In this document: positions 2,422 through 14,226 of the stretch, piece after piece
Layout of the letters: each line of letters starts with the position of its first letter
Numbering within the stretch: the first letter of the stretch is position 1
NCBI GenBank assembly: GCA_021813655.1
Contig: JAKAJU010000189.1
Location: forward strand, 2,229-66,228
From: Chloroflexota bacterium
GTDB lineage: Bacteria > Chloroflexota > Limnocylindria > Limnocylindrales > CSP1-4
Reading direction: 5' to 3'
Length of the DNA: 64,000 nucleotides
Made by a program: the position numbers and the translations under genes
Notes under the pieces: generated by a model
Seen by the model: only the letters and a program-made list of their open reading frames with translations
What the model was told of the DNA's origin: nothing
The model's database searches: none

Positions 2422-3360
2422 TCACTGAGGCATGCCGGAGAGGCCACGGATGAGGAGGATGATCGCCGGCCCGAGGATGACGATGAAGAGCGTCGGGAAG
2501 ATGCACCCGATGAGCGGGAACAGCATCTTGATCGGCGCCCGCTGGGCCATCTCCTCGGCGCGCTGCCGGCGGTCGATCCGCATCTGCTCGGACTGGACCT
2601 GCAGGACCTTGGAGATCGAGACACCCAGCTGCTCGGCCTGGATGACCGCGGAGATGAAGTTCGTGAGGGCCTGGACCTCGGTCCGCGGGACGATGTCGCG
2701 GAGCGCGTCGCGGCGCGTCTTGCCCATCCGGACCTCGGCGAGCGCGCGGCGGAACTCGTCGGGGAGCGGGCCCTTCATCTTCTCGACGACCTTCGCGAGC
2801 GCGGCGTCGAAGCCGAGGCCGGCGCGCACCGAGATCGTGATGAGGTCGAGCACGTCCGGGAGCTGCAGGACGATGAGCTTCTGGCGGGCCTTCACGCGGC
2901 GCCCGAGCCAGAACTCCGGCGCCATGTATCCGACGGCGATCCCCGCCGCTCCCAGAGCGATGGCCAGGGGGAACCCGACGCCGATGAACAGCCAGAAGAG
3001 GAGGAAGAAGACGACGCCCGCGACGCCCGCCGCGATGACCTTGATCCCCATCCACTCCTGGACGCCGACCTCGCCCGGGTTCCCTGCCTGCGCCAGGCTC
3101 TTCTCCGTGCGGTCGGCGAAGCTTGCCGAGGCGAATCGCTTCGAGAGTCCGGAGAGCCGGAGCGCGAGCGGCCGCAGGGTGCGTTCGGCGAACGGCTGCT
3201 GGAGCTCGAGCTCCTCGAGCGACTTCGCCTGCATCGTGCCGAGCTGAGAAAGGCGCGCCTGGACGGGGTCCGTGGAGCGTCCGCTCGCGACTGCCACGGC
3301 GATGAGGACGATCGACGCGGCGGCCGCGGCGGCGATGATGATCGGGAGGAATGCGCCCAT
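2422..3360 (-). CDS. tadC: Tad pilus assembly inner-membrane platform protein TadC (T2SS-F family)
   Basis: Polytopic membrane protein with the type II secretion F-domain pattern and the C-terminal ...MLFPLIGCIFPTLFIVILGPAIILLIRG. It sits immediately downstream of tadB. Confidence 0.85.
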   Translation of the reverse strand: MGAFLPIIIAAAAAASIVLIAVAVASGRSTDPVQARLSQLGTMQAKSLEELELQQPFAERTLRPLALRLSGLSKRFASASFADRTEKSLAQAGNPGEVGVQEWMGIKVIAAGVAGVVFFLLFWLFIGVGFPLAIALGAAGIAVGYMAPEFWLGRRVKARQKLIVLQLPDVLDLITISVRAGLGFDAALAKVVEKMKGPLPDEFRRALAEVRMGKTRRDALRDIVPRTEVQALTNFISAVIQAEQLGVSISKVLQVQSEQMRIDRRQRAEEMAQRAPIKMLFPLIGCIFPTLFIVILGPAIILLIRGLSGMPQ

Positions 3361-3362
3361 CG

Positions 3363-4379
3363 TCAGACCTGGATGTCCACGATCCTGCGGATGAGGATGA
3401 AGCCGATCGCCATCATGAAGCCGCCGATCGCGAGGATGATGACACCCGCGGGAAGGCCGAGCACCTCGGGCGGCTTCGAGAACATCGGCTCCATGAAGCT
3501 CGGTGCGATGACGAACAGGAGAGCCATGATGCCGATCGGCAGGCCGGCCACGACGTAGCCGGACATCCGCTGCTGCGCAGTGAGGACGCGGATCTCGCCC
3601 TTGATCCGCATCCGCTCGCGGATCGTGAACGCGATCGAGTCGAGGATCTCGGCGAGGTTACCGCCGACCTGGTGCTGGATCGTGATCGCGGTGACCATGA
3701 GCTCAAGGTCGTCCGACCGGACGCGCCGCACCATGTTCTCCATCGCGCCGTCGAACGGGAGGCCGAGGTTGACCTCGCGGATCACCCGGCCGAACTCCAG
3801 CGAGATCGGCGGTCGCGACTCGCGCGTGACGAGCTCGATCGCCTGGAGGAACGACGACCCGGCGCGGAGGGCGTTCGCGATCAGGGTGATCGTGTCGGGC
3901 AGCTGCTTGTTGAACGCATTCAGTCGTCCGTTCTTGCGCCGGCCCACGTAGATCCGCGGCAGGAAGAACCCGACGACGGCCCCGATGACGAGGAAGATCG
4001 GGTTGGCCAGAGTCGGCAGCACGAGCGAGAAGGCGAGCATCACGACCGGGACCGCCACCGTGCTGCCCACCATGATCGCCATGTACTCGCTGACCCGCAG
4101 GTGCAGGTCGGCGCGGGCGAGGTCGCGGGCCATGGTCGCGCCGAAGCTGCGCTGCTCGACCGCCCTGTTGATCTGCGAGAGCGCCTCGCTCTGCTGGAGG
4201 AGCTCGGCGATCGAGGGCGACGCCTCCGTCTTCTTCTGCTCCTTCTGGCGCCGACCGGGCGAGACGTACCGATCGATGCGGCCCGAGACGCCACCGGAGC
4301 CCGCACCGGACAGCGCGAACGCGATGAGGACGATCGCGACGGCCGCGACGACGGCGACGGCGACGGCGACGGGGGACAT
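3363..4379 (-). CDS. tadB: Tad pilus assembly platform protein TadB (T2SS-F family)
   Basis: Paralogue of TadC with the same architecture (NAFNKQLPDTITLIANALRAGSSFLQAIE...). It lies between tadA and tadC. Confidence 0.85.
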   Translation of the reverse strand: MSPVAVAVAVVAAVAIVLIAFALSGAGSGGVSGRIDRYVSPGRRQKEQKKTEASPSIAELLQQSEALSQINRAVEQRSFGATMARDLARADLHLRVSEYMAIMVGSTVAVPVVMLAFSLVLPTLANPIFLVIGAVVGFFLPRIYVGRRKNGRLNAFNKQLPDTITLIANALRAGSSFLQAIELVTRESRPPISLEFGRVIREVNLGLPFDGAMENMVRRVRSDDLELMVTAITIQHQVGGNLAEILDSIAFTIRERMRIKGEIRVLTAQQRMSGYVVAGLPIGIMALLFVIAPSFMEPMFSKPPEVLGLPAGVIILAIGGFMMAIGFILIRRIVDIQV

Positions 4380-4391
4380 GGTCGGACCTCG

Positions 4392-5801
4392 TCAGAAGCT
4401 GAAGCCGAACAGCCCGGGCGGGAGCTGGATGCCCATGACCTCGAACTTCTCGACGAACCGGGGACGGATCCCGGTCGGCTTCAGCCGGCCCTGGATGCGG
4501 CCTTCCACGACGCCCGTCTGCTCGAAGATGAAGACATCCTGCATGACGATGACGTCGCCTTCCATCCCCTGGACCTCGGTGATGTTCGTGATCTTCCGGG
4601 TCCCGTCCTTGAGGCGCGCCTGGTGAACGATCAGATCGACGGCGGAGGCGATCTGCTCGCGGATCGCGCGGAGCGGGAGCTCCACGCCGGCCATGAGGAC
4701 CATCGTCTCGAGGCGGGCGAGCATGTCGCGCGGGCTGTTCGCATGGCCCGTGCTCATCGAACCGTCGTGGCCCGTGTTCATCGCCTGGAGCATGTCGAGC
4801 GCCTCGCCGGACCGGCACTCGCCGACGATGATGCGGTCGGGCCGCATCCGGAGCGAGTTCCGGACGAGCTCCCGGATCGGGATCGCGCCACGACCCTCGA
4901 TGTTCGGCGGTCGGCTCTCGAGCGTGACCACGTGCTCCTGCCGGAGCTGCAGCTCGGCGGCGTCCTCGATCGTGATGATCCGCTCGTCGTTCGGGATGAA
5001 GGACGAGAGGACGTTCAGGGTCGTCGTCTTGCCCGAGCCGGTGCCGCCCGAGACGAACACGTTCATGCGGGCCTCGACACACGCGCGGAGGAAGTCGAAC
5101 ATCTCCGGTGTGGCCGTCCCGAATCGGACGAGGTCCTCGACGGTGAACGGGCTGGCTGCGAACTTCCGGATCGTCAGGACGGGGCCCACGAGCGAGAGCG
5201 GCGGGATGATGGCGTTGACGCGGGACCCGTCCGTGAGCCGGGCGTCGACCATCGGGCTCGACTCGTCGACGCGTCGGCCGATCGGCGCGATGATCCGGTC
5301 GATGATCCGCATGACGTGCTCGTCGTTCTGGAAGACGACGTTCGTCAGCTCGAGCTTGCCGCTCCGTTCGACGTAGACCTGGCGCGGCCCGTTGACCATG
5401 ATCTCGGTGATGCTCTCGTCGCGGAGGAGCGGCTCGAGCGGTCCGAGGCCGATGATCTCGTCGGTGATCTGCTCGAGCATCCGCACGCGTTCGGCGCGGG
5501 TGAGGGCGAGGCCCTCCTCGTCGACGACGCGGCTGAAGATCTCCTCGATCTGCCGGCGGACCTCGACCTGGTTGGAGAGGTCGAGTCGCGGGTCGAGCTC
5601 CTGGATGACGCGGGTCTGGATCCGGAACTTGACGTCGCGGAACGACTCGCGGACCGGCGCGGTGGCCAGGAGGCGCGCGGCCGAGGTCGGGGGTCCCGGC
5701 GGCATCCCGCCCGGCGCCGGAGCGACCGGGCTCGGTGCCGGCTCCGGCGCCCCCCCGGCACCCCCGGGTCTCGCGCTCTCGATGCGCTTCAGCAGGGACA
5801 T
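4392..5801 (-). CDS. tadA: Tad pilus ATPase TadA/CpaF (T2SS-E / VirB11 family)
   Basis: Walker A motif GGTGSGKTT, the ...RIIVGECRSGEA... segment, and the Asp/His boxes typical of CpaF secretion ATPases. Confidence 0.9.
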   Translation of the reverse strand: MSLLKRIESARPGGAGGAPEPAPSPVAPAPGGMPPGPPTSAARLLATAPVRESFRDVKFRIQTRVIQELDPRLDLSNQVEVRRQIEEIFSRVVDEEGLALTRAERVRMLEQITDEIIGLGPLEPLLRDESITEIMVNGPRQVYVERSGKLELTNVVFQNDEHVMRIIDRIIAPIGRRVDESSPMVDARLTDGSRVNAIIPPLSLVGPVLTIRKFAASPFTVEDLVRFGTATPEMFDFLRACVEARMNVFVSGGTGSGKTTTLNVLSSFIPNDERIITIEDAAELQLRQEHVVTLESRPPNIEGRGAIPIRELVRNSLRMRPDRIIVGECRSGEALDMLQAMNTGHDGSMSTGHANSPRDMLARLETMVLMAGVELPLRAIREQIASAVDLIVHQARLKDGTRKITNITEVQGMEGDVIVMQDVFIFEQTGVVEGRIQGRLKPTGIRPRFVEKFEVMGIQLPPGLFGFSF

Positions 5802-5860: not shown

Positions 5861-7114
5861 CTAGCGGAGCGAGAAGATCCCTCTCTTCCTCTCGACCTTG
5901 GCGCGCTGGCCCGACGCCTCCGTCTCGCCGCCGAGCAGGAACCGCGCGAGCTTGAGGATGTCCTGCGACACCTGCATCTCGCGGTTGCTCGTCACGAACG
6001 GCACGCCGCGGTTGAGAGCGTAGACGACCGTCCGGCCGTCGCTGATGATCTGGTGGTCGAACTTCCGGCCGATCGACTGCTCGGCGTCGGAGACACGGAT
6101 CCCGAGCGCCGAGTCGGCTCGGTTGAGGACGAGCCTGATGCGGTCCGCCGGGTAGCCGAGCTGCTCCGCGATCTCGAGGAAGAGCCGAACGCTCTTGATG
6201 CTCGTGATCTCCAGGGTCAGGACGGCGAGGATGACGTCCGCCGTGTCGAGGATCGCGAGCGTCGTGTCGCTGAACCATGCCGGACAGTCGACGATGACGA
6301 GGTCGCTCGACTGCCGGAACATCTCGACGACACGCTTGGCGGCCGCGGGCGTGATGAGGTCCGCCGTCTCGGGCGAGGGCGGCGCGAGGAGCACGCGCAG
6401 GCCGGACGAGTGCGACACGGTGAACGTCTCGAGCGACTCCACCTCGCCGCCCTGCATCTCCGGGATGAGGTCCGCGATCGACTTGGACCGCGGGTTGAGG
6501 TTCAGGAGGATCGCGACGTCGCCGAACTGGAACGCGGCATCCATGAGGACGACCTCGCCCGCCCGTTCGGCCGCGGCCGCCACGGCGAGGTTCACCGCGA
6601 CCGTCGTCCGTCCCACGCCGCCCTTCGGGCTGAAGACCGCCACGACGCGACCGGGTTCATGATCCGGCCGGGCGATCGCGTGGGCGTCCGGGCGCACCGG
6701 CACGGGCATCCGGCCCATCTTCTCGCGCTCGCGTTCGTAGACCTGTCGGATCGATGCTGTCAGCTCGTCGCTGCTGAACGGCTTGACGAGGAACTCGCGC
6801 GCGCCGGCGAGCATGGACCTGCGCAGGTAGTCCGCCTCACCCTGGACCGACATCATCACGATCGCCGCCGTGGGCACGATCGCGGCGAGCCGCTCCGTCG
6901 CCGTGATGCCGTCCATCTCGGGCATGTTGATGTCCATGAGCACGACGTCCGGCAGGAGCTTCGGGGCCATCTCGATGGCCTCGGGCCCCGACGCCGCGGC
7001 GCCGACGACCGTGAGATCGCGCTCGAAGCTGAGCAGCTTCGTCAGATGGTCGCGCGTCTCCGCGATGTCATCCACGATGAGGACGCGGATCTGCTCGTCC
7101 ATGGGCCTGCCCAT
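5861..7114 (-). CDS. cpaE: TadZ/CpaE: N-terminal receiver domain fused to a ParA/MinD-like ATPase
   Basis: The N-terminus (RVLIVDDIAETR...VVLMDINMPEMDG...MMSVQG...LVKPF) is a receiver domain that keeps the canonical DD, D, S/T and K residues. The C-terminal part carries the deviant Walker A motif SPKGGVGRTT. The start may be M1 (7114) or M5 (7102). Confidence 0.85.
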   Translation of the reverse strand: MGRPMDEQIRVLIVDDIAETRDHLTKLLSFERDLTVVGAAASGPEAIEMAPKLLPDVVLMDINMPEMDGITATERLAAIVPTAAIVMMSVQGEADYLRRSMLAGAREFLVKPFSSDELTASIRQVYEREREKMGRMPVPVRPDAHAIARPDHEPGRVVAVFSPKGGVGRTTVAVNLAVAAAAERAGEVVLMDAAFQFGDVAILLNLNPRSKSIADLIPEMQGGEVESLETFTVSHSSGLRVLLAPPSPETADLITPAAAKRVVEMFRQSSDLVIVDCPAWFSDTTLAILDTADVILAVLTLEITSIKSVRLFLEIAEQLGYPADRIRLVLNRADSALGIRVSDAEQSIGRKFDHQIISDGRTVVYALNRGVPFVTSNREMQVSQDILKLARFLLGGETEASGQRAKVERKRGIFSLR

Positions 7115-7154
7115 CTGCGACGGAGGCGGCGGCCGGTGATGGTCCGGCAGGCCG

Positions 7155-8036
7155 TCACTTCGTCGGCGGAAGGCTCGCCTCCAGGATCTGAGGAGGAAGG
7201 ACGCCGTACTCGGTGATGAGCGTCTTGAGGACCACGCCGCTCGTCTTGACGTCCGGCGCGTCCTTGTCCTGCGGGGAACGCAGCACCAGGGTGACGTTGT
7301 TGGCGGGGAGCGCGGAGCCCATCGTCAGCCCATCCTGCTGGACGAACTGCAGGACCTCCGCCTGTTGCGGCGTCATCGCCAGGATGACGACCTGCTGGGC
7401 GGTCGCGAGGTCCGTCAGGGCAGGAGCTCCGGTCGTGGCCACGGAGGTGCTCGCGGTCGCCCCCAGGATCGCCCGCACCTCGGCGTTCTGGATGATCACC
7501 TTGGACGAATCGCCCTCGAGGCCGGGGATGTCGATCGACTGCGGCGGCGCCGACGGCTCGGCTCCCGGCGCGAGCAGCGTCTCCTTGATCTTGATCGTCA
7601 TGACGATATCGACGCGGTCACCGGGGAGGATGAGGGTCCCGACGCCCGTGACCGCGTCGACGCGGACGGCGACCGCCACCATGCCGGTCGGCAGGTCCTT
7701 CGACACGCTGGTCTGCCCGGTGCCGCTGAACATCGTCTGCGACAGGTAGGCGCCCTTCGTGATGTCCGTGCGCGCCACCTGGCCCACTACCTCGCCCGGC
7801 TGGGCGAAGTAGTCCGGCTTCTTGTCGGTCACGGGAATCTGCAGCGCGGCAACCTGGCCTTCGCCGATCTTGTCGCCGAGTGGAATGTCCTGCGTCGCGA
7901 CGACCACGCTGGTCATCGGCGTCGCCGTTGGACCTCCGCCTCCGCCCTTGGAGTTGAAGACGAAGATGATGCCGACGAACGCGACGACAGCGAGGAGCAC
8001 CCCGACGACGAGGATCAGCCGGTTCGTGCGCTTCAC
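7155..8036 (-). CDS. cpaB: Flp pilus assembly protein CpaB/RcpC (SAF domain)
   Basis: N-terminal TM anchor, then a SAF-like domain (...TQDIPLGDKIGEGQVA...) and a C-terminal RcpC-like region. It sits between the pilin genes and tadZ. Confidence 0.8.
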   Translation of the reverse strand: MKRTNRLILVVGVLLAVVAFVGIIFVFNSKGGGGGPTATPMTSVVVATQDIPLGDKIGEGQVAALQIPVTDKKPDYFAQPGEVVGQVARTDITKGAYLSQTMFSGTGQTSVSKDLPTGMVAVAVRVDAVTGVGTLILPGDRVDIVMTIKIKETLLAPGAEPSAPPQSIDIPGLEGDSSKVIIQNAEVRAILGATASTSVATTGAPALTDLATAQQVVILAMTPQQAEVLQFVQQDGLTMGSALPANNVTLVLRSPQDKDAPDVKTSGVVLKTLITEYGVLPPQILEASLPPTK

Positions 8037-8230
8037 TCTGTGCCCACCCCCACCTGGTTGGAACCCAACTCTAGCACCGCACCGAACGGCCGGGACTATA
8101 CCAAAGGCCTATCGCGGGACAGGAGTACCGGATGCAGGATCTCGCCGTGTCGGATGGCGCGCTGCCGGCTGCCACATATCGAACGGCCGGCCCGGAAGGC
8201 CGGCCGTTCGATCGTTCGCGGGTCGCCCCG

Positions 8231-8416
8231 TCAGAGCGAGTTGCCGACGGTGCTCAGCAGCGAGCTGATCCCGTTGCCCATGAAGAGCAGGGCGACGATC
8301 GCCAGCACGGCGATGAGGCCCAGGATCAGGGCGTACTCCGCAAGGCCCTGGCCGCGCTCGTCGTGAGTGCCTGCAACGAAGAACGGATCGATGAGTGCAT
8401 GGAGATGGTCGAGCAC
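8231..8416 (-). CDS. flp: Flp/Fap family type IVb pilin
   Basis: The 61-aa protein carries the ...ERGQGLAEYALILGLIAVLAIVALLF... prepilin motif (G/XXXXEY). A GTG start follows a strong SD (GGAAGGAGGT). Confidence 0.8.
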   Translation of the reverse strand: MLDHLHALIDPFFVAGTHDERGQGLAEYALILGLIAVLAIVALLFMGNGISSLLSTVGNSL

Positions 8417-8629
8417 CAGGGCTACCTCCTTCCTGCCCGAGACCCCGGGATCGACGGGGCCGATCCGCCCGGCCGACGGGCGCGGCCGGCGCGACTGTGA
8501 CAGCGATGTGATCCGCGAGAGAGGTCGCCGGGCCGCGCGACGCCCGGCCCACCCTCGAGTCTGCTCACGAAAGCCGACCGCCGGTCAGGCTGTGCCCGGC
8601 CGGCGGTCGAGATCGCGCGTGCGGAGTCG

Positions 8630-8803
8630 TCAGACCGACGAGCCGACGGTGCTGAGGATGGTGCTGATCTGGCCACCGAGGAAGATGAGCGCCACGATGG
8701 CGATGATCGCGATGAGGGCGAGGATGAGCGCGTACTCGGCGAGGCCCTGGCCCTCCTCGTCCCGGCGGATGGACGCGATGAGTGCGGAGAAGTACTGGAT
8801 CAC
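8630..8803 (-). CDS. flp: Flp/Fap family type IVb pilin (second copy)
   Basis: The 57-aa product VIQYFSALIASIRRDEEGQGLAEYALILALIAIIAIVALIFLGG... is preceded by an AAGGAGGTGA SD 7 nt upstream of the GTG. The ORF-track entry 8630..9175 is an over-extension. Confidence 0.75.
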   Translation of the reverse strand: MIQYFSALIASIRRDEEGQGLAEYALILALIAIIAIVALIFLGGQISTILSTVGSSV

Positions 8804-9193
8804 TTGGCTGTCACCTCCTTTCCTCGAAGATCCCCCGGCACCTGCCGGGAGTCGGATGTGACCTGGATCGAAATCCCGGATCGGATGGCGCGACCGCCTC
8901 GGGAAAGATGCCACCGGCGTCAAGTCGAGCGCAAGGTGCGAAGGGAGCGCCGTTCGGCTCGCCACCCGACGTGGCGCGCCGCTCGCGTCCCTCCGGCTGT
9001 TGGGTTCGGGACCTCCCGGATCCGATCGGTTCGCGTGCTCGCGGTCCGAGCACGGCAACCCTAATCCCACGCGGCCGGGTGCGGCATGACCCGTTCGTCG
9101 GGGTGGGGTCTGGTGATTCGGTCCTGGGGGCCGCCTCCACTCGTCCCGCCCCGGGCCTCTCCCGGGCGATCGCACGCCCCGCGCGAGCAGCGT

Positions 9194-9409
9194 CTACTGC
9201 TGGACCTGGGCCCCGATGAAGTCGAGGATCGCCGCCAGCTGCGGCCCGAATACCACGATCGCGATCGTCGCGACGACGACGGCGATCCCGAGGGTGAGAG
9301 CGGCCTCCACGAGGCCCTGCCCGCGTTCGTGGCCGCGGGTGCCGTCCGCCGCGGTCCCGGCCGCGCGGCCGATGCGCGCGGAGGCGACCCGTGCGCAGGC
9401 CGTGTTCAT
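9194..9409 (-). CDS. Flp-like pilin, divergent third copy
   Basis: ...HERGQGLVEAALTLGIAVVVATIAIVVF... keeps the Gly and Glu of the prepilin motif but has Ala in place of the conserved Tyr. The leader is longer. The ATG overlaps the stop codon of the upstream kinase-like gene (ATGA). Confidence 0.55.
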   Translation of the reverse strand: MNTACARVASARIGRAAGTAADGTRGHERGQGLVEAALTLGIAVVVATIAIVVFGPQLAAILDFIGAQVQQ

Positions 9410-10566
9410 CCCTCGGGCAGGTCGATCGCGACGCGGAGTCGATGCCCTTCCTCGTCGATCTCCACGTCCGCGCCGATCGTCTCGGCGCGCTGCTCCACGG
9501 ACCGGATCGTCTCCTCGGGGAGCGCGGTCTCGGCCGCCTCGCGGATCTTCGGCGCCGCGTCCACGACCCGCTGGCGCATCATGGCCGCGAGGGCGGGCGG
9601 GACGTTGTCGCCCTCTGCCGTCTCCGCCTCTGCGACTCCGGCCGCGAGCGCGGCGACCGGCGCCGCGTACGGGGTCGCCATGACCGCGACGAGCCGTGTG
9701 CCCCAGTCGAGACGGAGCGAGACGTGATCCGGATGCGTGGAGATGAATCCCGCGAGCGTCTCGTCGATGATCCGGAACAGCGTGCTCTCGACGTCGATCG
9801 GGAGGCGGCGGTCGGGTCCGAGCGAGTCGAAGTCGATCGGGATCAGCGCGCGGCGGCTCCTCTCGCGCGCCACCCGCCGGAGCGTGGGCACGAGCCCGAG
9901 ATCGTCGAGCACCATGGGCCGGACGTCGAAGATGAACGTCTTCGTCGCTTCGAGCGTCCGCTCGACCATCCGCACCAGCTCGGCGATCTCCGCCGCGGCC
10001 GCGTCGGGGTTCGACGCCTGGAGCCGCTGGACGATCTGGGCCTGGAGGACGATGTTCGTCAGGCTCTGGGCCGGCCCGTCGTGCATCGAGCGTGCGATCT
10101 CGCGCCGCATGTCCTCCTGCGCGGTGAGCACGATCCGGGAGACGCCACCGGAGCGCTCCTTCTCGCCGGCACCGCCGGACGGCAGGTCCATGTCCTCGAG
10201 CTCCGCCCTGATCTCGACGAGCCTGTCGCGGAAGCGGGCGATCGCGCGGCGCTTGCCCTCGAGGACGTCGATCGACGCCTGCATGACGCTGGCCTTGCGG
10301 GTCATGGTCAGGAGCGCCTGGTACGCCTCGGTCAGTTCGTGGATCGCGACCGACCGCCCGCTCGTGACCTGGGCGATCCGTTCTCCGGCCTGCTCCACGC
10401 GCTGCTCGTGACGCGACGTTTCGTTGCGCGCCTGCTGCAGCAGGAGGTCGATCTCGGCGAGCTCAGCCTCGAGCCCCACGACGTCCGACGTGATGCGCGC
10501 GACGAGATCCGGTGCCGTCGCCGGGTCCGTCTCCGCGGGCCGGCCCCGGCTTCGCGCATCAGTCAT
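9406..10566 (-). CDS. HisKA_3-type histidine-kinase paralogue with a degenerate catalytic (ATP-binding) domain
   Basis: Coiled-coil N-terminus, then the H-box REIARSMHDGPAQSL (HisKA_3). In the CA domain the N-box Asn is replaced (DETLAGFISTH versus QEALQNIRKHA in the paralogue). No DxGxG (G1) or GxGL (G2) motif is present. Confidence 0.7.
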   Translation of the reverse strand: MTDARSRGRPAETDPATAPDLVARITSDVVGLEAELAEIDLLLQQARNETSRHEQRVEQAGERIAQVTSGRSVAIHELTEAYQALLTMTRKASVMQASIDVLEGKRRAIARFRDRLVEIRAELEDMDLPSGGAGEKERSGGVSRIVLTAQEDMRREIARSMHDGPAQSLTNIVLQAQIVQRLQASNPDAAAAEIAELVRMVERTLEATKTFIFDVRPMVLDDLGLVPTLRRVARERSRRALIPIDFDSLGPDRRLPIDVESTLFRIIDETLAGFISTHPDHVSLRLDWGTRLVAVMATPYAAPVAALAAGVAEAETAEGDNVPPALAAMMRQRVVDAAPKIREAAETALPEETIRSVEQRAETIGADVEIDEEGHRLRVAIDLPEG

Positions 10567-11299
10567 CGGGCATCTTGATCCAGCCCTGGCGCATGGCGTA
10601 CACGACGGCCTGCGTCCGGTCGTTCACCGACAGCTTCCGCAGGATGCTCGACATGTGGTTCTTCACGGTCTGCTCGCTGATCGAGAGCGTGAACGCCACC
10701 TGCTTGTTCGTCATGCCCTGGGCGATGTTGTCGAGGATCTCGACCTCCCGTGGCGAGAGGGGCGCGAAGATGGGCTGCGCCTCCTGCCCGTAGACGGCGA
10801 GCTCGCGGAACTCCTTGAGCACACGGCCCGCGACGGTGGGCTTGGAGAAGACCTTGTCGTTGATGAGGTACTCGCCGCTGCGGACGCGGCGGATGATCGT
10901 GACGAGATCGTCCGGGCCCACGTCCTTGAGGATGAACGCGGCAGCCCCGGCCTTGATCGCGTCGAAGAGCGCATCCTCGTCCTCCTCGTCGGCGAGGATG
11001 ATGATCCCTGTGGCCGCGAGCTCCCGCTTCAGCCGCTGGGTCGTCTCGATCCCGTTGGACAGGGGCAGCGTGAGGTCCATGAGGACGATGTCCGGCGTCA
11101 GCTCGACCGCCATGTCGAAGGCGTCGCGGGCGTTGTCCGCCTCGCCGACGATGATGAAGTCGACCTCGCGGGCGAGGATGTCCCGGATCCCGATCCGGAA
11201 GAACGCGTGATCGTCGACGATGAGGATCTTGGTGGGCTCTCCGGTCCCGCGTCGATCCGGCCCGCCACGCCGCCGATCCGGCCCGCTGTAATCGGTCAT
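10559..11299 (-). CDS. NarL/FixJ-family response regulator (REC + LuxR-type HTH)
   Basis: Receiver domain ILIVDDHAFFR...IVLMDLTLP... joined to a C-terminal LuxR HTH (LSPREVEILDNIAQGMTNKQVAFTLSISEQTVKNHMSSILRKL). The ATG at 11299 overlaps the stop of the upstream kinase (ATGA). Confidence 0.85.
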   Translation of the reverse strand: MTDYSGPDRRRGGPDRRGTGEPTKILIVDDHAFFRIGIRDILAREVDFIIVGEADNARDAFDMAVELTPDIVLMDLTLPLSNGIETTQRLKRELAATGIIILADEEDEDALFDAIKAGAAAFILKDVGPDDLVTIIRRVRSGEYLINDKVFSKPTVAGRVLKEFRELAVYGQEAQPIFAPLSPREVEILDNIAQGMTNKQVAFTLSISEQTVKNHMSSILRKLSVNDRTQAVVYAMRQGWIKMPDD

Positions 11300-12489
11300 C
11301 CTGGCTGCCCTTCCCCTTCGATGCTGAGTCGGACCACGGTGCCCGCCCCCGGCTTCGATCGGACGACCACGGTCCCCCCGACCAGCTCGGCGCGTTCCCG
11401 CATGAACTGGAGCCCGAAGTTGTGCCGCCCGCGCGACCCGATCGCGTCGACGTCGAAGCCGCGCCCGTCGTCGCGGACCTCGAGCACCCACCCTTCGTCG
11501 GAACGCGACGTGACGATGGCGACCGTCCGGGCGGCCGCGTGCTTGCGGATATTCTGCAGCGCCTCCTGGAGCACACGGAGGACGACGACCTGCTGCATCT
11601 CCGAGAGCGCCTCGGCGGGCCCCTCGAGGTCTGTCTCGGTCCGGACCTCCACGCTCGAGGTGAAGGTGTCCACGGCTTCCCGGATCGCGCCGTCGAGCCC
11701 GACCTCCGCGAGAGCCGGCGGGCGCAGCTGGCCGATGAAGCTCCGGACGTCAGCGAGCTCGCGCCGCATCACCTCGCGCAGGTATCGCAGCTCCGTGCGT
11801 GCGAGCCGTGGGTCGCGGTCCATGAGTCGCTCGACGTAGTCCACCTGGAAGAAGGCGTTCGCGATCGTCTGGGCGGGCCCGTCGTGGATCTCCTGCGCGA
11901 GGCGGACCCGTTCCTGCTCCTGGGCCTCCACGACGCGCATCCGCAGATCCGACGGGCTCAGCGGGACGCCGTCGTCCACGCCGAGCGACGTGTCGTGGCG
12001 CTCCAGGAAGAGCCAGGCGTTCTCGAGGCTCCGCGTGACGATCTCGAGGCGCGACAGGTCGCTCTGCTCGTCGCCGAGCACGGATCCGGTGATCTCCACC
12101 GCGCGCCGGAGCTCCTGGCGGACCGCGCCCTCGGCCGCGCCCTCCGCGGCGAGCGCGAAGGCCTCATCGGATCCGGGCTCCTCAACGCCGCCCGCCGCCT
12201 CGGCTGCCGGCGGCGGGCCGTCGCCGCGGACCAGGCGGCGGTCCATCCGGGCGAGCTCGTCGCGGTCGTGGTGCCAGCGCCGGAGCGCGAGCCGGTGCGT
12301 CTCGCGGTACAGGTCCGTCAGCCCGCGGAACTGGTTCGCCGCGTACCCGAGCGCGCTCTTCGCCTCCGCGTAGAGAGCGTCGAGTCGCTCGGCATCCTCG
12401 GACGGATGCACGACGGGAGCGTCGGAGCCGGGAGAAGCCTCCATCATGCGGAGTATACGGGCGTCCCGAGCCCCTTCCCCGACCTCCAC
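11296..12489 (-). CDS. Cytoplasmic sensor histidine kinase (HisKA_3 + HATPase_c)
   Basis: H-box LAQEIHDGPAQTIANA. The ATPase domain is complete, with an N-box QEALQNIRKHA, a G1 box VRDDGRGFD and a G2 box NFGLQFMRERAELVGG. No TM segment is present. GTG at 12489 follows an AAGGGGG SD. Confidence 0.8.
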   Translation of the reverse strand: MEVGEGARDARILRMMEASPGSDAPVVHPSEDAERLDALYAEAKSALGYAANQFRGLTDLYRETHRLALRRWHHDRDELARMDRRLVRGDGPPPAAEAAGGVEEPGSDEAFALAAEGAAEGAVRQELRRAVEITGSVLGDEQSDLSRLEIVTRSLENAWLFLERHDTSLGVDDGVPLSPSDLRMRVVEAQEQERVRLAQEIHDGPAQTIANAFFQVDYVERLMDRDPRLARTELRYLREVMRRELADVRSFIGQLRPPALAEVGLDGAIREAVDTFTSSVEVRTETDLEGPAEALSEMQQVVVLRVLQEALQNIRKHAAARTVAIVTSRSDEGWVLEVRDDGRGFDVDAIGSRGRHNFGLQFMRERAELVGGTVVVRSKPGAGTVVRLSIEGEGQPG

Positions 12490-12588: not shown

Positions 12589-14226
12589 TCACGGGCACGC
12601 GATGCGATAGACGCGGATCGCGTCCGAGCCGTCATCGGCGCGCACCGTCGCCTCCGGGACCAGGTCGAAGCAGCCGGCAGCCTCCCCACCCGCATCGAGG
12701 ATCGCCGGCCACTCCCCGTGCGCCGGCTCGACGGAGACGACGAGGAGCTTCGCCCCGAAGGTCCGCGCCAGGTCCAGGACGTCGGCGGGGGACTCCTGCG
12801 GCAGGGCGAGGGCTGGAACACGGGCCGTCTCGGCGAGCCAGATCGGGAAGTCGGCGATCACGGGCGCGTTCTCGGCGAGGGGGATGCCGGCGCCGGTGGT
12901 CGTGTCGAGGAGCGCCCGGTAGCGCCGTTCGGCCTCGGTCGAGACGGCCCCGATCCCGGTGATCGTCACGAAGAGCATCGGGATCGTGAAGAGGATGACC
13001 GCCGCGGGGGCGAGGAGTGCCGACCCGCGTCCCCACCCGCGTCGCGTCGCGACCCACGCCACGAGCATGTCGAGGCCGGCCATCGCGCTGACGACGAGGA
13101 GGACGTGGATCGGGCCGCCGGCGTGGAGGAACGTGCCCCAGAGCGTCGCGACGGGGAAGACGAGCGTGGTCGCGAGGAACGTGAGCGCCGCCCCGACCAG
13201 AAGCGGTCGGAGGACGACGGAGCGCAGGAACCAGGGAAGGGCGACGATCCCGATCGGGCCGACCGGGAGTGCCGGGATCAGCAGGACGGCGAGGGTGTTG
13301 TGCAGGAACGCGTCCACGCGGTCCGAGACGAGCTTCGCGGGACCCTGGGCGAGCCAGGCACCGAGCGTCGGCTTGTCCGCCCAGCCGAAGACGTCGTTGC
13401 CCGTGCGGAAGTAGGCGTTGGAGAGCGCCTGCCCGGGCAGCGGGGTGCCGAAGACGGCCCACTGCCGGATCGTCCACGGCACGTAGACGGCGATCGCCGC
13501 GAGGGCCGGGGTGGCGAGCAGGCGGACGTACGCGCGGATCCGCGCCCCCTCGCCCGCGACGGCTCGCGTGGCCCCCCACGCGACCCCGACCCACGCGAGC
13601 GCGTACCAGGCCGCCTCGTTCCGGGTCAGCGCGGCGAGGCCGAGGAGGAGTCCGATGCCCAGCAGGCGGGGATCGGCGAGGCGTGCGCCCCGTGGATCGC
13701 GGACGACGCGCTCCATGAGGATGCAGGCGGAGACCGCCGCGACCGTGAAGGGCGCCGTCGAGTCCGGGAGCGCGCCGTAGAGGACGAGCGGGCCGTAGAG
13801 CGCGGCGACGATGCCCGACCCGACGGCGAGCACGCGCCCGCGGAGCGGGGCGAGCCGCCGCTCCTCGGCGAGGTCAGCGGCAAGGCGCCATGCCAGGACC
13901 GGCACGATCGCGCTCACGAGGACGCCGGCGACCTGTGCGGACCGGAATGTCGTCCCGAGGACCGCGAGGAACGGGAGCGAGAGGAACGTGGGCAGCGGGA
14001 GCCAGATCTCGAACGCCGGACGCGGGAGCGTGAGCGGCGGCAGGTAGTACGACCAGAGTGCGTCGCTCACGAGCCCGCGCCCTTCGACGGCGTTGCGCGC
14101 GACGCCCCAGTAGTACGCGGTGTCCTCGGGGACCGCGAAGGGGACGGCCGCGGCGGCGACGATCCGGACCGCGACGGCGAGCCCGAAGATCGCCGCCGCT
14201 GAGACGATGGCCTCGCGTCGGGTCAT
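12589..14226 (-). CDS. GT39/ArnT-PMT-like polytopic glycosyltransferase (GT-C fold)
   Basis: 545-aa multi-TM protein with an N-terminal AVPEDTAYYWGVARNAVEGRGL loop that resembles the PMT/ArnT DE-motif loop. Confidence 0.7.
   Translation of the reverse strand: MTRREAIVSAAAIFGLAVAVRIVAAAAVPFAVPEDTAYYWGVARNAVEGRGLVSDALWSYYLPPLTLPRPAFEIWLPLPTFLSLPFLAVLGTTFRSAQVAGVLVSAIVPVLAWRLAADLAEERRLAPLRGRVLAVGSGIVAALYGPLVLYGALPDSTAPFTVAAVSACILMERVVRDPRGARLADPRLLGIGLLLGLAALTRNEAAWYALAWVGVAWGATRAVAGEGARIRAYVRLLATPALAAIAVYVPWTIRQWAVFGTPLPGQALSNAYFRTGNDVFGWADKPTLGAWLAQGPAKLVSDRVDAFLHNTLAVLLIPALPVGPIGIVALPWFLRSVVLRPLLVGAALTFLATTLVFPVATLWGTFLHAGGPIHVLLVVSAMAGLDMLVAWVATRRGWGRGSALLAPAAVILFTIPMLFVTITGIGAVSTEAERRYRALLDTTTGAGIPLAENAPVIADFPIWLAETARVPALALPQESPADVLDLARTFGAKLLVVSVEPAHGEWPAILDAGGEAAGCFDLVPEATVRADDGSDAIRVYRIACP

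Follow-up and report, generated by a model that had tools for sequence, protein, structure and literature searches.

What can a histidine kinase still do once it has kept its phospho-accepting histidine and lost the motifs that bind ATP? This question is raised by a gene at 9406..10566 in a 64,000-nucleotide stretch of DNA (the window) from a Chloroflexota bacterium of the class Limnocylindria (order Limnocylindrales, CSP1-4; assembly GCA_021813655.1, contig JAKAJU010000189.1). The open reading frame (ORF) begins with ATG and encodes 386 amino acids. Its product, here called psHK, is a kinase-dead HisKA_3 paralogue of an intact kinase encoded two genes upstream in the same Tad pilus operon, and the identical protein is also recorded in a second metagenome-assembled genome (MAG), GCA_027399775.1. 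Most likely, psHK transfers or strips off phosphate in the service of the signalling pair in control of the pilus. By analogy with ChpT, Spo0B and PhyT, it may be an ATP-independent dimeric histidine phosphotransferase, a reading to which we give a probability of about 0.4. All coordinates are those of the window, and features lie on the minus strand unless stated otherwise.

Loss of the ATP-binding motifs from psHK

The protein is built from three parts. A helical hairpin or coiled coil (residues 18-125; 10192..10515) is followed by a dimerization and histidine phosphotransfer (DHp) domain, delimited by Pfam and AlphaFold2 (residues 135-220; 9907..10164), and then by a C-terminal domain (residues 225-386; 9409..9894) that has the Bergerat alpha/beta fold of a catalytic and ATP-binding (CA) domain without its N, G1 and G2 boxes, and which we call the pseudo-CA domain. 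The H-box (REIARSMHDGPAQSL, MHDGPAQS) lies in the DHp domain. Its core, H162-D163-G-P-A-Q167 (10066..10083), combines the phospho-acceptor histidine (codon 10081-10083) with the DxxxQ phosphatase motif. HisKA_3 (PF07730) is matched at residues 154-220 with E=2.4e-12 and is the sole Pfam domain of the protein; HATPase_c, HATPase_c_2 and every other ATPase family give no match in psHK even at E<=1. The paralogue (11296..12489) is an intact soluble DegS-like histidine kinase of 397 amino acids, in which both HisKA_3 (E=3.3e-15) and HATPase_c (E=2.4e-14) are found. The NCBIfam kinase models MctS, UhpB, LiaS and NarX cover this kinase through its C-terminus and match psHK only up to residue ~273, taking in the DHp domain and the first CA helix. 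NCBIfam holds no model for the psHK family itself. The relatives of psHK look the same: the best 120 matches among 5.8 billion proteins all carry PF07730 only, and HATPase_c is not among the Pfam families matched by any of the 56 family members scanned.

Alignment of the two paralogues locates the loss. BLASTP pairs residues 146-271 of psHK with residues 186-311 of the kinase at 30% identity and ends at the N-box helix. When 84 psHK orthologues are compared with 70 orthologues of the true kinase by hhalign, the alignment runs from residues 22 to 384 of psHK and from 36 to 393 of the kinase (E=2e-56). Its span and E-value identify the two proteins as full-length paralogues, including the N-terminal hairpin, which aligns with the N-terminal region of the kinase. 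Both families share the DHp core positions AQE..R...HDGPAQ.L.N...Q...ER, and the true kinase conserves the N, G1 and G2 boxes together with its own HDGPAQ phosphatase motif. At the N box, DEALA(A/G)Y of psHK stands opposite QEALQNvRKHA of the kinase, with a gap at the asparagine; the G1 sequence DDGRGF has no psHK counterpart; and at G2, WREIQxRA faces FGLQFMRERA. In the window's protein the equivalent of the N-box helix is ESTLFRIIDETLAGFIS (9739..9789), where the glutamate is retained and the Mg-binding asparagine is substituted. Among the 84 psHK orthologues the asparagine position is occupied by alanine (51) or glycine (33) and never by asparagine, and the glutamate, E269, is largely conserved. 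The first-pass annotation had described a histidine kinase paralogue whose DHp histidine survives while its ATP-binding motifs do not, with the N-box asparagine replaced and the G1 and G2 boxes absent. Profile searches, the paralogue alignment, structure prediction and family-wide conservation all bear this description out, and the profile searches turned up no intact ATP-lid motifs. Judged from its motifs, psHK is shown to be unable to use the canonical ATP site and, since it has neither the N, G1 and G2 boxes nor a HATPase_c profile match, it cannot be a kinase of the HisKA_3 family.

The fold has fared better than the motifs. The AlphaFold2 model, for which 56 homologues were used (mean predicted local distance difference test score, pLDDT, 81), places a hairpin at residues 18-125 (helices 18-69 and 75-125, pLDDT ~90), the DHp helices at 135-214, and an alpha/beta domain at 225-386 whose strands and helices follow one another as in a CA domain. 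Modelled alone, this last domain reaches a pLDDT of 84.5 and a predicted template modelling (TM) score of 0.72. In a Foldseek search of the PDB with the full model, structures of the DesK cytoplasmic domain rank first (E=8e-8); the matches also include the VraS CA domain (TM 0.69 to the target) and the ChpT chains 4qpk and 4qpj. With the isolated pseudo-CA domain, all of the best 50 matches are histidine kinase or CheA chains that contain the ATP-binding domain; among them, the CA domains of DesK and VraS give TM scores of 0.75 and 0.68, at an identity of just 9-16%. A sequence profile of the same domain finds no significant match in the PDB, where the best histidine kinase CA domain is that of VraS (E=0.63); this weak alignment (IEDHLFRITQEAISNTLR) also sets the N-box asparagine opposite a psHK glycine or alanine. 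The homology of the pseudo-CA domain to CA domains therefore rests on its fold and on the paralogue alignment. It had been supposed that only the terminal beta strands persist, and this part of the first description does not hold, as both models retain a complete five-stranded alpha/beta CA fold. In place of the ATP lid (residues 298-349; 9520..9675), there is a variable linker and a conserved V/LPPALAAMM helix (9577-9603). Helices are modelled at 303-317, 324-337 and 344-347, with a lower pLDDT of 53-73, and P323, P324, A325, L326 and M329 are conserved in the family. According to the models, then, psHK keeps the whole Bergerat fold; its N, G1 and G2 motifs are lost, as is the lid, whose place is taken by a conserved helical insert (LPPALAAMM).

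Two further regions distinguish psHK from its paralogue. The first helix of the pseudo-CA domain (residues 230-246; 9829-9879) is strongly basic, with R230, R231, R234, R236 and R239 invariant and R254 and R265 in addition; the true kinase has no counterpart, reading IREAVDTFTSS there. This helix could be a docking surface for the acidic faces of receivers, or a ligand site. A PilZ-like c-di-GMP site, suggested by the Arg-rich helix followed by FDSxG, was rejected by eye because neither spacing nor fold fits. The hairpin carries two invariant motifs, QARxEAxRHE and VLEGKRK (residues 45-107; 10245-10434), both absent from the paralogous kinase. From the model, the hairpin is presumed to be an input or partner-binding domain, and the conservation of its motifs suggests a specific binding partner or signal.

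Conservation of psHK and its likeness to known degenerate kinases

The loss is shared by the whole family: psHK is kept at 43-77% identity in hundreds of Chloroflexota genomes of the Limnocylindria type. The best 120 matches are all full-length and 46-100% identical, the top one being the window's protein itself, and they come from metagenome bins of Chloroflexota and of Candidatus Limnocylindrales/Limnocylindria, labelled DegS at the Joint Genome Institute. When each GTDB species was scanned through a single genome, at least 589 stretches were confirmed, from which 80 loci were kept, all of them from Chloroflexota MAGs. The 84 orthologues come from species-level genomes, with a best-segment identity to the window's protein of 43-72%. 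H162, D163, G164, P165, A166, Q167 and S168 are invariant in every one of them, as is most of DHp helix 1, and the H162-D163-G-P-A-Q167 core is also unchanged in 56/56 database homologues. In the pseudo-CA domain, W288 is invariant. The DHp domain of psHK is under stronger constraint than that of the true kinase, with 35/86 invariant columns and a mean entropy of 0.56 against 9/80 and 1.00, which fits a surface that serves more than one partner. Such lineage-wide conservation indicates purifying selection on a kinase-dead protein rather than decay. Among 1.84e9 cluster representatives, a profile of the pseudo-CA domain finds 340 relatives (E<=1e-3), and by these searches the domain forms a narrow family, too far from ordinary CA domains for HMMER to link the two. 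One match of 3455 amino acids was set aside as spurious; it looks like a Ser/Thr-rich tandem-repeat protein, by eye probably of fibronectin-III type.

The protein thus appears to be fixed across Limnocylindria, a class of abundant, uncultured soil and freshwater Chloroflexota, and provides a clean case, found in nature, of a duplicated kinase put to new use. The labels "histidine kinase" and "DegS" are misleading for hundreds of genomes. In the literature on Limnocylindria pili, degenerate HisKA_3 proteins and phosphorylation of the TadZ receiver, no published description of psHK was found.

It is rare for a degenerate kinase to keep its histidine and lose the ability to bind ATP; those that have been characterised, ChpT, Spo0B and PhyT, are each central to an important decision circuit. 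To our knowledge, all three are phosphotransferases. ChpT, from Caulobacter and Brucella, resembles psHK in its DHp-type helical hairpin with a phospho-histidine and in its Bergerat-like C-terminal domain that is unable to bind ATP. Its ATP pocket is closed by extra helical turns that replace the lid (PMC3433190), and psHK is modelled likewise. Unlike ChpT, psHK descends from the HisKA_3/DegS lineage, carries an N-terminal coiled-coil hairpin of 125 residues and retains DxxxQ; its donor would be a full NarL-type regulator instead of the receiver of a hybrid kinase. Spo0B, from the sporulation phosphorelay of Bacillus, is also a degenerate histidine kinase and acts as the second histidine in a His-Asp-His-Asp relay whose steps fall to separate proteins; it forms dimers and combines a four-helix bundle with an alpha/beta domain, an arrangement to which the architecture of psHK can be likened. 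The differences lie in the Tad pilus context and in an operon that has no stand-alone Spo0F-like receiver. PhyT (formerly PhyP), from Sphingomonas melonis, shares with psHK a conserved histidine, a degenerated ATPase domain and a gene placed beside that of its regulator, but PhyT is anchored in the membrane and belongs to the HWE/HisKA_2 type (HRxxN), whereas psHK is soluble and of the HisKA_3 type. Taken at first for a phosphatase, PhyT later proved to be a phosphotransferase that also has a further, negative role (PMC5898713).

None of these likenesses reflects common family membership. The Pfam families HPTransfase (ChpT) and SPOB_a/SPOB_ab (Spo0B) give no match in psHK at E<=1, and they are also missing from the 25 families listed for the 56 psHK members scanned. 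As far as profiles can tell, the likeness to ChpT, Spo0B and PhyT is one of architecture, and the psHK family would be an independent reinvention of the same solution from HisKA_3 stock. The closest matches in structure and sequence are DesK, NarX and DegS, which share the H-box HD...Q and the DHp-CA architecture with psHK but not its lack of N, G1 and G2 boxes and of a HATPase_c profile match. The opposite degeneracy is seen in the pseudokinases DivL and PsmA, which are reported to have lost the phospho-histidine and kept the CA domain (PMC4211667, PMC12963549). Both are repurposed histidine kinase scaffolds, and psHK, with its invariant histidine and lost ATP site, is their reverse.

Partners and function of psHK

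Since psHK cannot make phospho-histidine from ATP, it must work downstream of a real kinase. The operon supplies one, and its tally is suggestive: two DHp domains and two receivers with an intact aspartate stand beside a single ATP-binding domain, arranged as His1-Asp1-His2-...-Asp2. The first receiver belongs to a NarL-type response regulator of 246 amino acids (receiver plus GerE; 10559..11299), where D29, D30, D75 and K125 are present, D75 being the intact aspartate. The second is that of TadZ/CpaE (5861..7114; Response_reg E=5e-27), whose D15, D16, D61, S89 and K111 are all invariant in 54 orthologues, with D61 as the aspartate. TadZ usually bears an atypical, non-phosphorylatable receiver (bioRxiv 10.64898/2026.07.08.737194). 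Here the receiver is canonical and therefore needs a phosphodonor; on its residues alone, it implies that the pilus assembly platform would be under phospho-control. The Tad pilus to which psHK is tied has a TadZ with an unusually canonical receiver.

We infer that psHK exchanges phosphoryl groups with a receiver, and the regulator is its best-supported partner. Pairing of HisKA_3 kinases with NarL-type receivers is normal, the genes are coupled, and the contacts known from DesK:DesR are matched, with L174 (His+12) and K209 (His+47) of psHK corresponding to L200 and R235 of DesK, and D126 of the regulator, after the conserved lysine, corresponding to D103 of DesR (TadZ has KP at that site). 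Evolutionary distances correlate as well. In a mirror-tree analysis with partial correlation of domain distance matrices over 44 genomes, psHK follows the regulator receiver with r=0.66-0.72.

In the proposed mechanism, psHK would join the two-component system at the head of the Tad pilus operon as its third member. Its DHp domain would dock the phosphorylated regulator and take the phosphoryl group back onto H162, with DxxxQ-assisted hydrolysis as a leak, and would thereby set the level of phosphorylated regulator. It would then hand the phosphoryl group on to the canonical TadZ receiver, so that pilin transcription is coupled to the assembly platform via psHK. The two halves of this scheme are not equally firm: psHK probably drains the regulator, and it may feed the TadZ receiver. 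The complete four-protein His-Asp-His-Asp relay, running from the soluble kinase to the NarL-type regulator, psHK and the canonical TadZ receiver, is unlikely as a whole, and we infer every phosphoryl-transfer step, the identity of the partners and the direction of flow. If such a relay exists, psHK would be the first dimeric histidine phosphotransferase from the HisKA_3 lineage, TadZ the first Tad pilus positioning ATPase of the TadZ/CpaE type switched directly by phosphorylation, and the DNA-binding regulator would double as a relay intermediate. The scheme amounts to a concrete hypothesis, open to test, of how the assembly of Tad pili could be controlled after translation.

Several points weigh against a phosphotransferase that serves TadZ. 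Known relays use a stand-alone or kinase-fused receiver as intermediate, and here a complete regulator with its DNA-binding domain would fill that place. The usual partners of HisKA_3 DHp domains are NarL-type receivers; the receiver of TadZ differs at helix 1 and has KP, not KD, in the beta5-alpha5 loop. Neither covariation nor distance matrices tie psHK specifically to TadZ. In the 44-genome matrices its distances correlate about equally with the two receivers (0.66 and 0.65), so that regulator and TadZ are not separated as partners. Mutual information with average product correction, computed over 47-79 genomes between the DHp domain of either paralogue and the receiver of the regulator or TadZ, gives top scores that all lie at 0.2-0.4, with no outlier and no separation of partners; the psHK DHp domain is too invariant to hold a signal of this kind. 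A TadZ homologue search for outgroup Tad loci without psHK gave a list of 120 matches that are all 69-91% identical, with none more distant among them. The host itself is known as an uncultured MAG. Finally, the invariance of H162 does not discriminate between the readings: in the phosphatase state of DesK the histidine lies buried and plays a structural part, and neither NarX nor DesK needs it for phosphatase activity (PMC5231405).

The three functions put forward in the first-pass annotation, namely phosphatase, phosphotransfer partner and regulator of the kinase, are the readings that remain; they are ranked here, not decided. A dedicated transmitter phosphatase is less likely than a carrier but a serious rival to it. 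Locked in a phosphatase-like state, psHK would hydrolyse the phosphorylated regulator through the DxxxQ glutamine without any phospho-histidine, and kinase and phosphatase activities would be split between two paralogues with different input domains. The D163xxxQ167 motif is invariant, and in NarX and DesK, where the histidine can be spared, the glutamine is catalytic; packing of the DesK CA domain on the DHp domain stabilises the phosphatase state and adds ~400 A2 of contact with the receiver (PMC5231405). The nucleotide-free CA fold of psHK could play the same role. The family norm of HisKA_3 pairing with NarL-type regulators, the translational coupling of the genes and the distances that track the regulator receiver also speak for this reading. 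However, the real kinase has the same DxxxQ within its own HDGPAQ, so that a second phosphatase dedicated to the same regulator is less necessary and partly redundant, the precedents with a degenerate CA domain proved to be phosphotransferases, and the canonical TadZ receiver would be left without a donor in the operon. For these reasons a phosphate carrier is favoured over a phosphatase.

A further reading, quite unlikely yet still a serious rival, is that psHK is a non-catalytic modulator or trans-substrate of the neighbouring kinase, to which it would bind by docking or as a heterodimer. It might then inhibit or re-tune the kinase in the style of RetS and GacS, or have H162 phosphorylated in trans by the kinase CA domain, as in the split kinase CheA3/CheA4, which would give the system a second output specificity. 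That the two proteins are paralogues over their whole length, with a common N-terminal hairpin, DHp domain and CA fold and many DHp core positions in common, would suit such an association; so would coupled translation, which suggests matched stoichiometry, and the RetS kinase region is among the Foldseek matches of the psHK models. Yet the distances of psHK and of the kinase DHp domain correlate poorly (r=0.38, partial -0.08), and in some genomes the N-terminal region of the kinase is swapped for a fused membrane domain while psHK is unchanged. As a rule, paralogous kinases also evolve away from heterodimers.

A kinase that binds its nucleotide non-canonically, via the Arg-rich helix or the conserved insert, is very improbable: the Bergerat fold is retained, E269 is largely kept and the five invariant arginines from R230 to R239 could bind phosphates, but the Mg-binding asparagine, the adenine-binding G1 aspartate and the G2 glycines are missing in every member, and helices take the place of the lid, a feature shared with ATP-free ChpT. 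A decaying pseudogene or annotation artefact without function, for which the missing motifs alone would speak, is effectively refuted by full-length conservation in hundreds of genomes, by the invariant W288 and LPPALAAM of the pseudo-CA domain and by a gene order kept in 80/80 species-level loci.

The Tad pilus operon around psHK

Gene order was counted over the 80 species-level loci wherever the contig reaches far enough, and in all of them those genes of the block that are present keep one order and one strand: a PMT_2 glycosyltransferase-like membrane protein, a 545-residue membrane protein, the kinase, the NarL-type regulator, psHK, the Flp pilins, CpaB and TadZ with its receiver. CpaF, TadB, TadC and a DUF192 gene come next in 4/4 fully annotated loci, and Pfam confirms the downstream genes in the window. 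Across loci, the regulator is 69-95% identical and TadZ 60-89%, and the kinase and psHK are mostly at ~50%, rising to ~70% in the closest loci.

The genes for the kinase, the regulator, psHK and the first pilin overlap by 4-8 nt, and psHK is made from one, largely overlapping message together with the kinase and regulator. The regulator start overlaps the kinase stop (ATGA), the psHK start overlaps the regulator stop by 8 nt (GATGACTGA), and the stop codon of psHK (TGA) runs into the first Flp pilin's ATG, again as ATGA (GGATGAAC); the overlap behind the coupling that had been noticed earlier is real. In 53/78 loci the start of a Flp-like ORF lies between -25 and +30 nt from the end of psHK, in 29 of them with the 4-nt overlap.

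The regulator has several features of its own. Ala103 occupies the conserved Thr/Ser switch position (aligned to S87 of NarL and a threonine of VraR), and alanine is the consensus of 79 orthologues. A conserved Arg-rich extension, YxGPERRRGGPDRR, stands at its N-terminus, and its helix-turn-helix domain is nearly invariant, with a mean p-distance of 0.02 over 44 genomes. An apparently long linker was dropped from consideration, as alignment to NarL and VraR leaves an insertion of only ~9 residues.

Upstream of the kinase lies the 545-residue polytopic membrane protein (12589..14226). It has no Pfam match, and its neighbour is PMT_2-like. In three loci it is fused in frame to the kinase (L003, at 6925-9258, giving a protein of 777 amino acids, L050 and L073). 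Such Rosetta-stone fusion suggests that the glycosyltransferase-like membrane protein is the sensor for the kinase, and on this evidence from gene structure it is a probable sensor partner.

Downstream, the Tad/Flp locus is complete in one operon, with Flp pilins, CpaB, TadZ/CpaE, CpaF, TadB and TadC. The first pilin (9194..9409) is divergent and represents a distinct minor Flp subtype, characterised by GQG[LIV]VEYG... and a C-terminus ...AIDxATGG, where the major pilins have EEGQGLAEYALILALIAIVAI; in the window it reads GQGLVEAAL, with Glu-Ala in place of the canonical Glu-Tyr. The second pilin (8630..8803; EEGQGLAEYALIL) and the third (8231..8416) are of the major type. They are followed by CpaB/RcpC (7155..8036), TadZ/CpaE, the CpaF ATPase (4392-5801), TadB (3363-4379) and TadC (2422-3360). 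Many long ORFs of up to 926 amino acids, antisense or in other frames, overlap the real genes on both strands between 5700 and 16400; at ~70-74% G+C, these are the usual artefact and not evidence of genes. A DUF192 (COG1430) gene (2040-2624) ends the tad operon in the window, as it does in the three other fully annotated loci (L003-L005).

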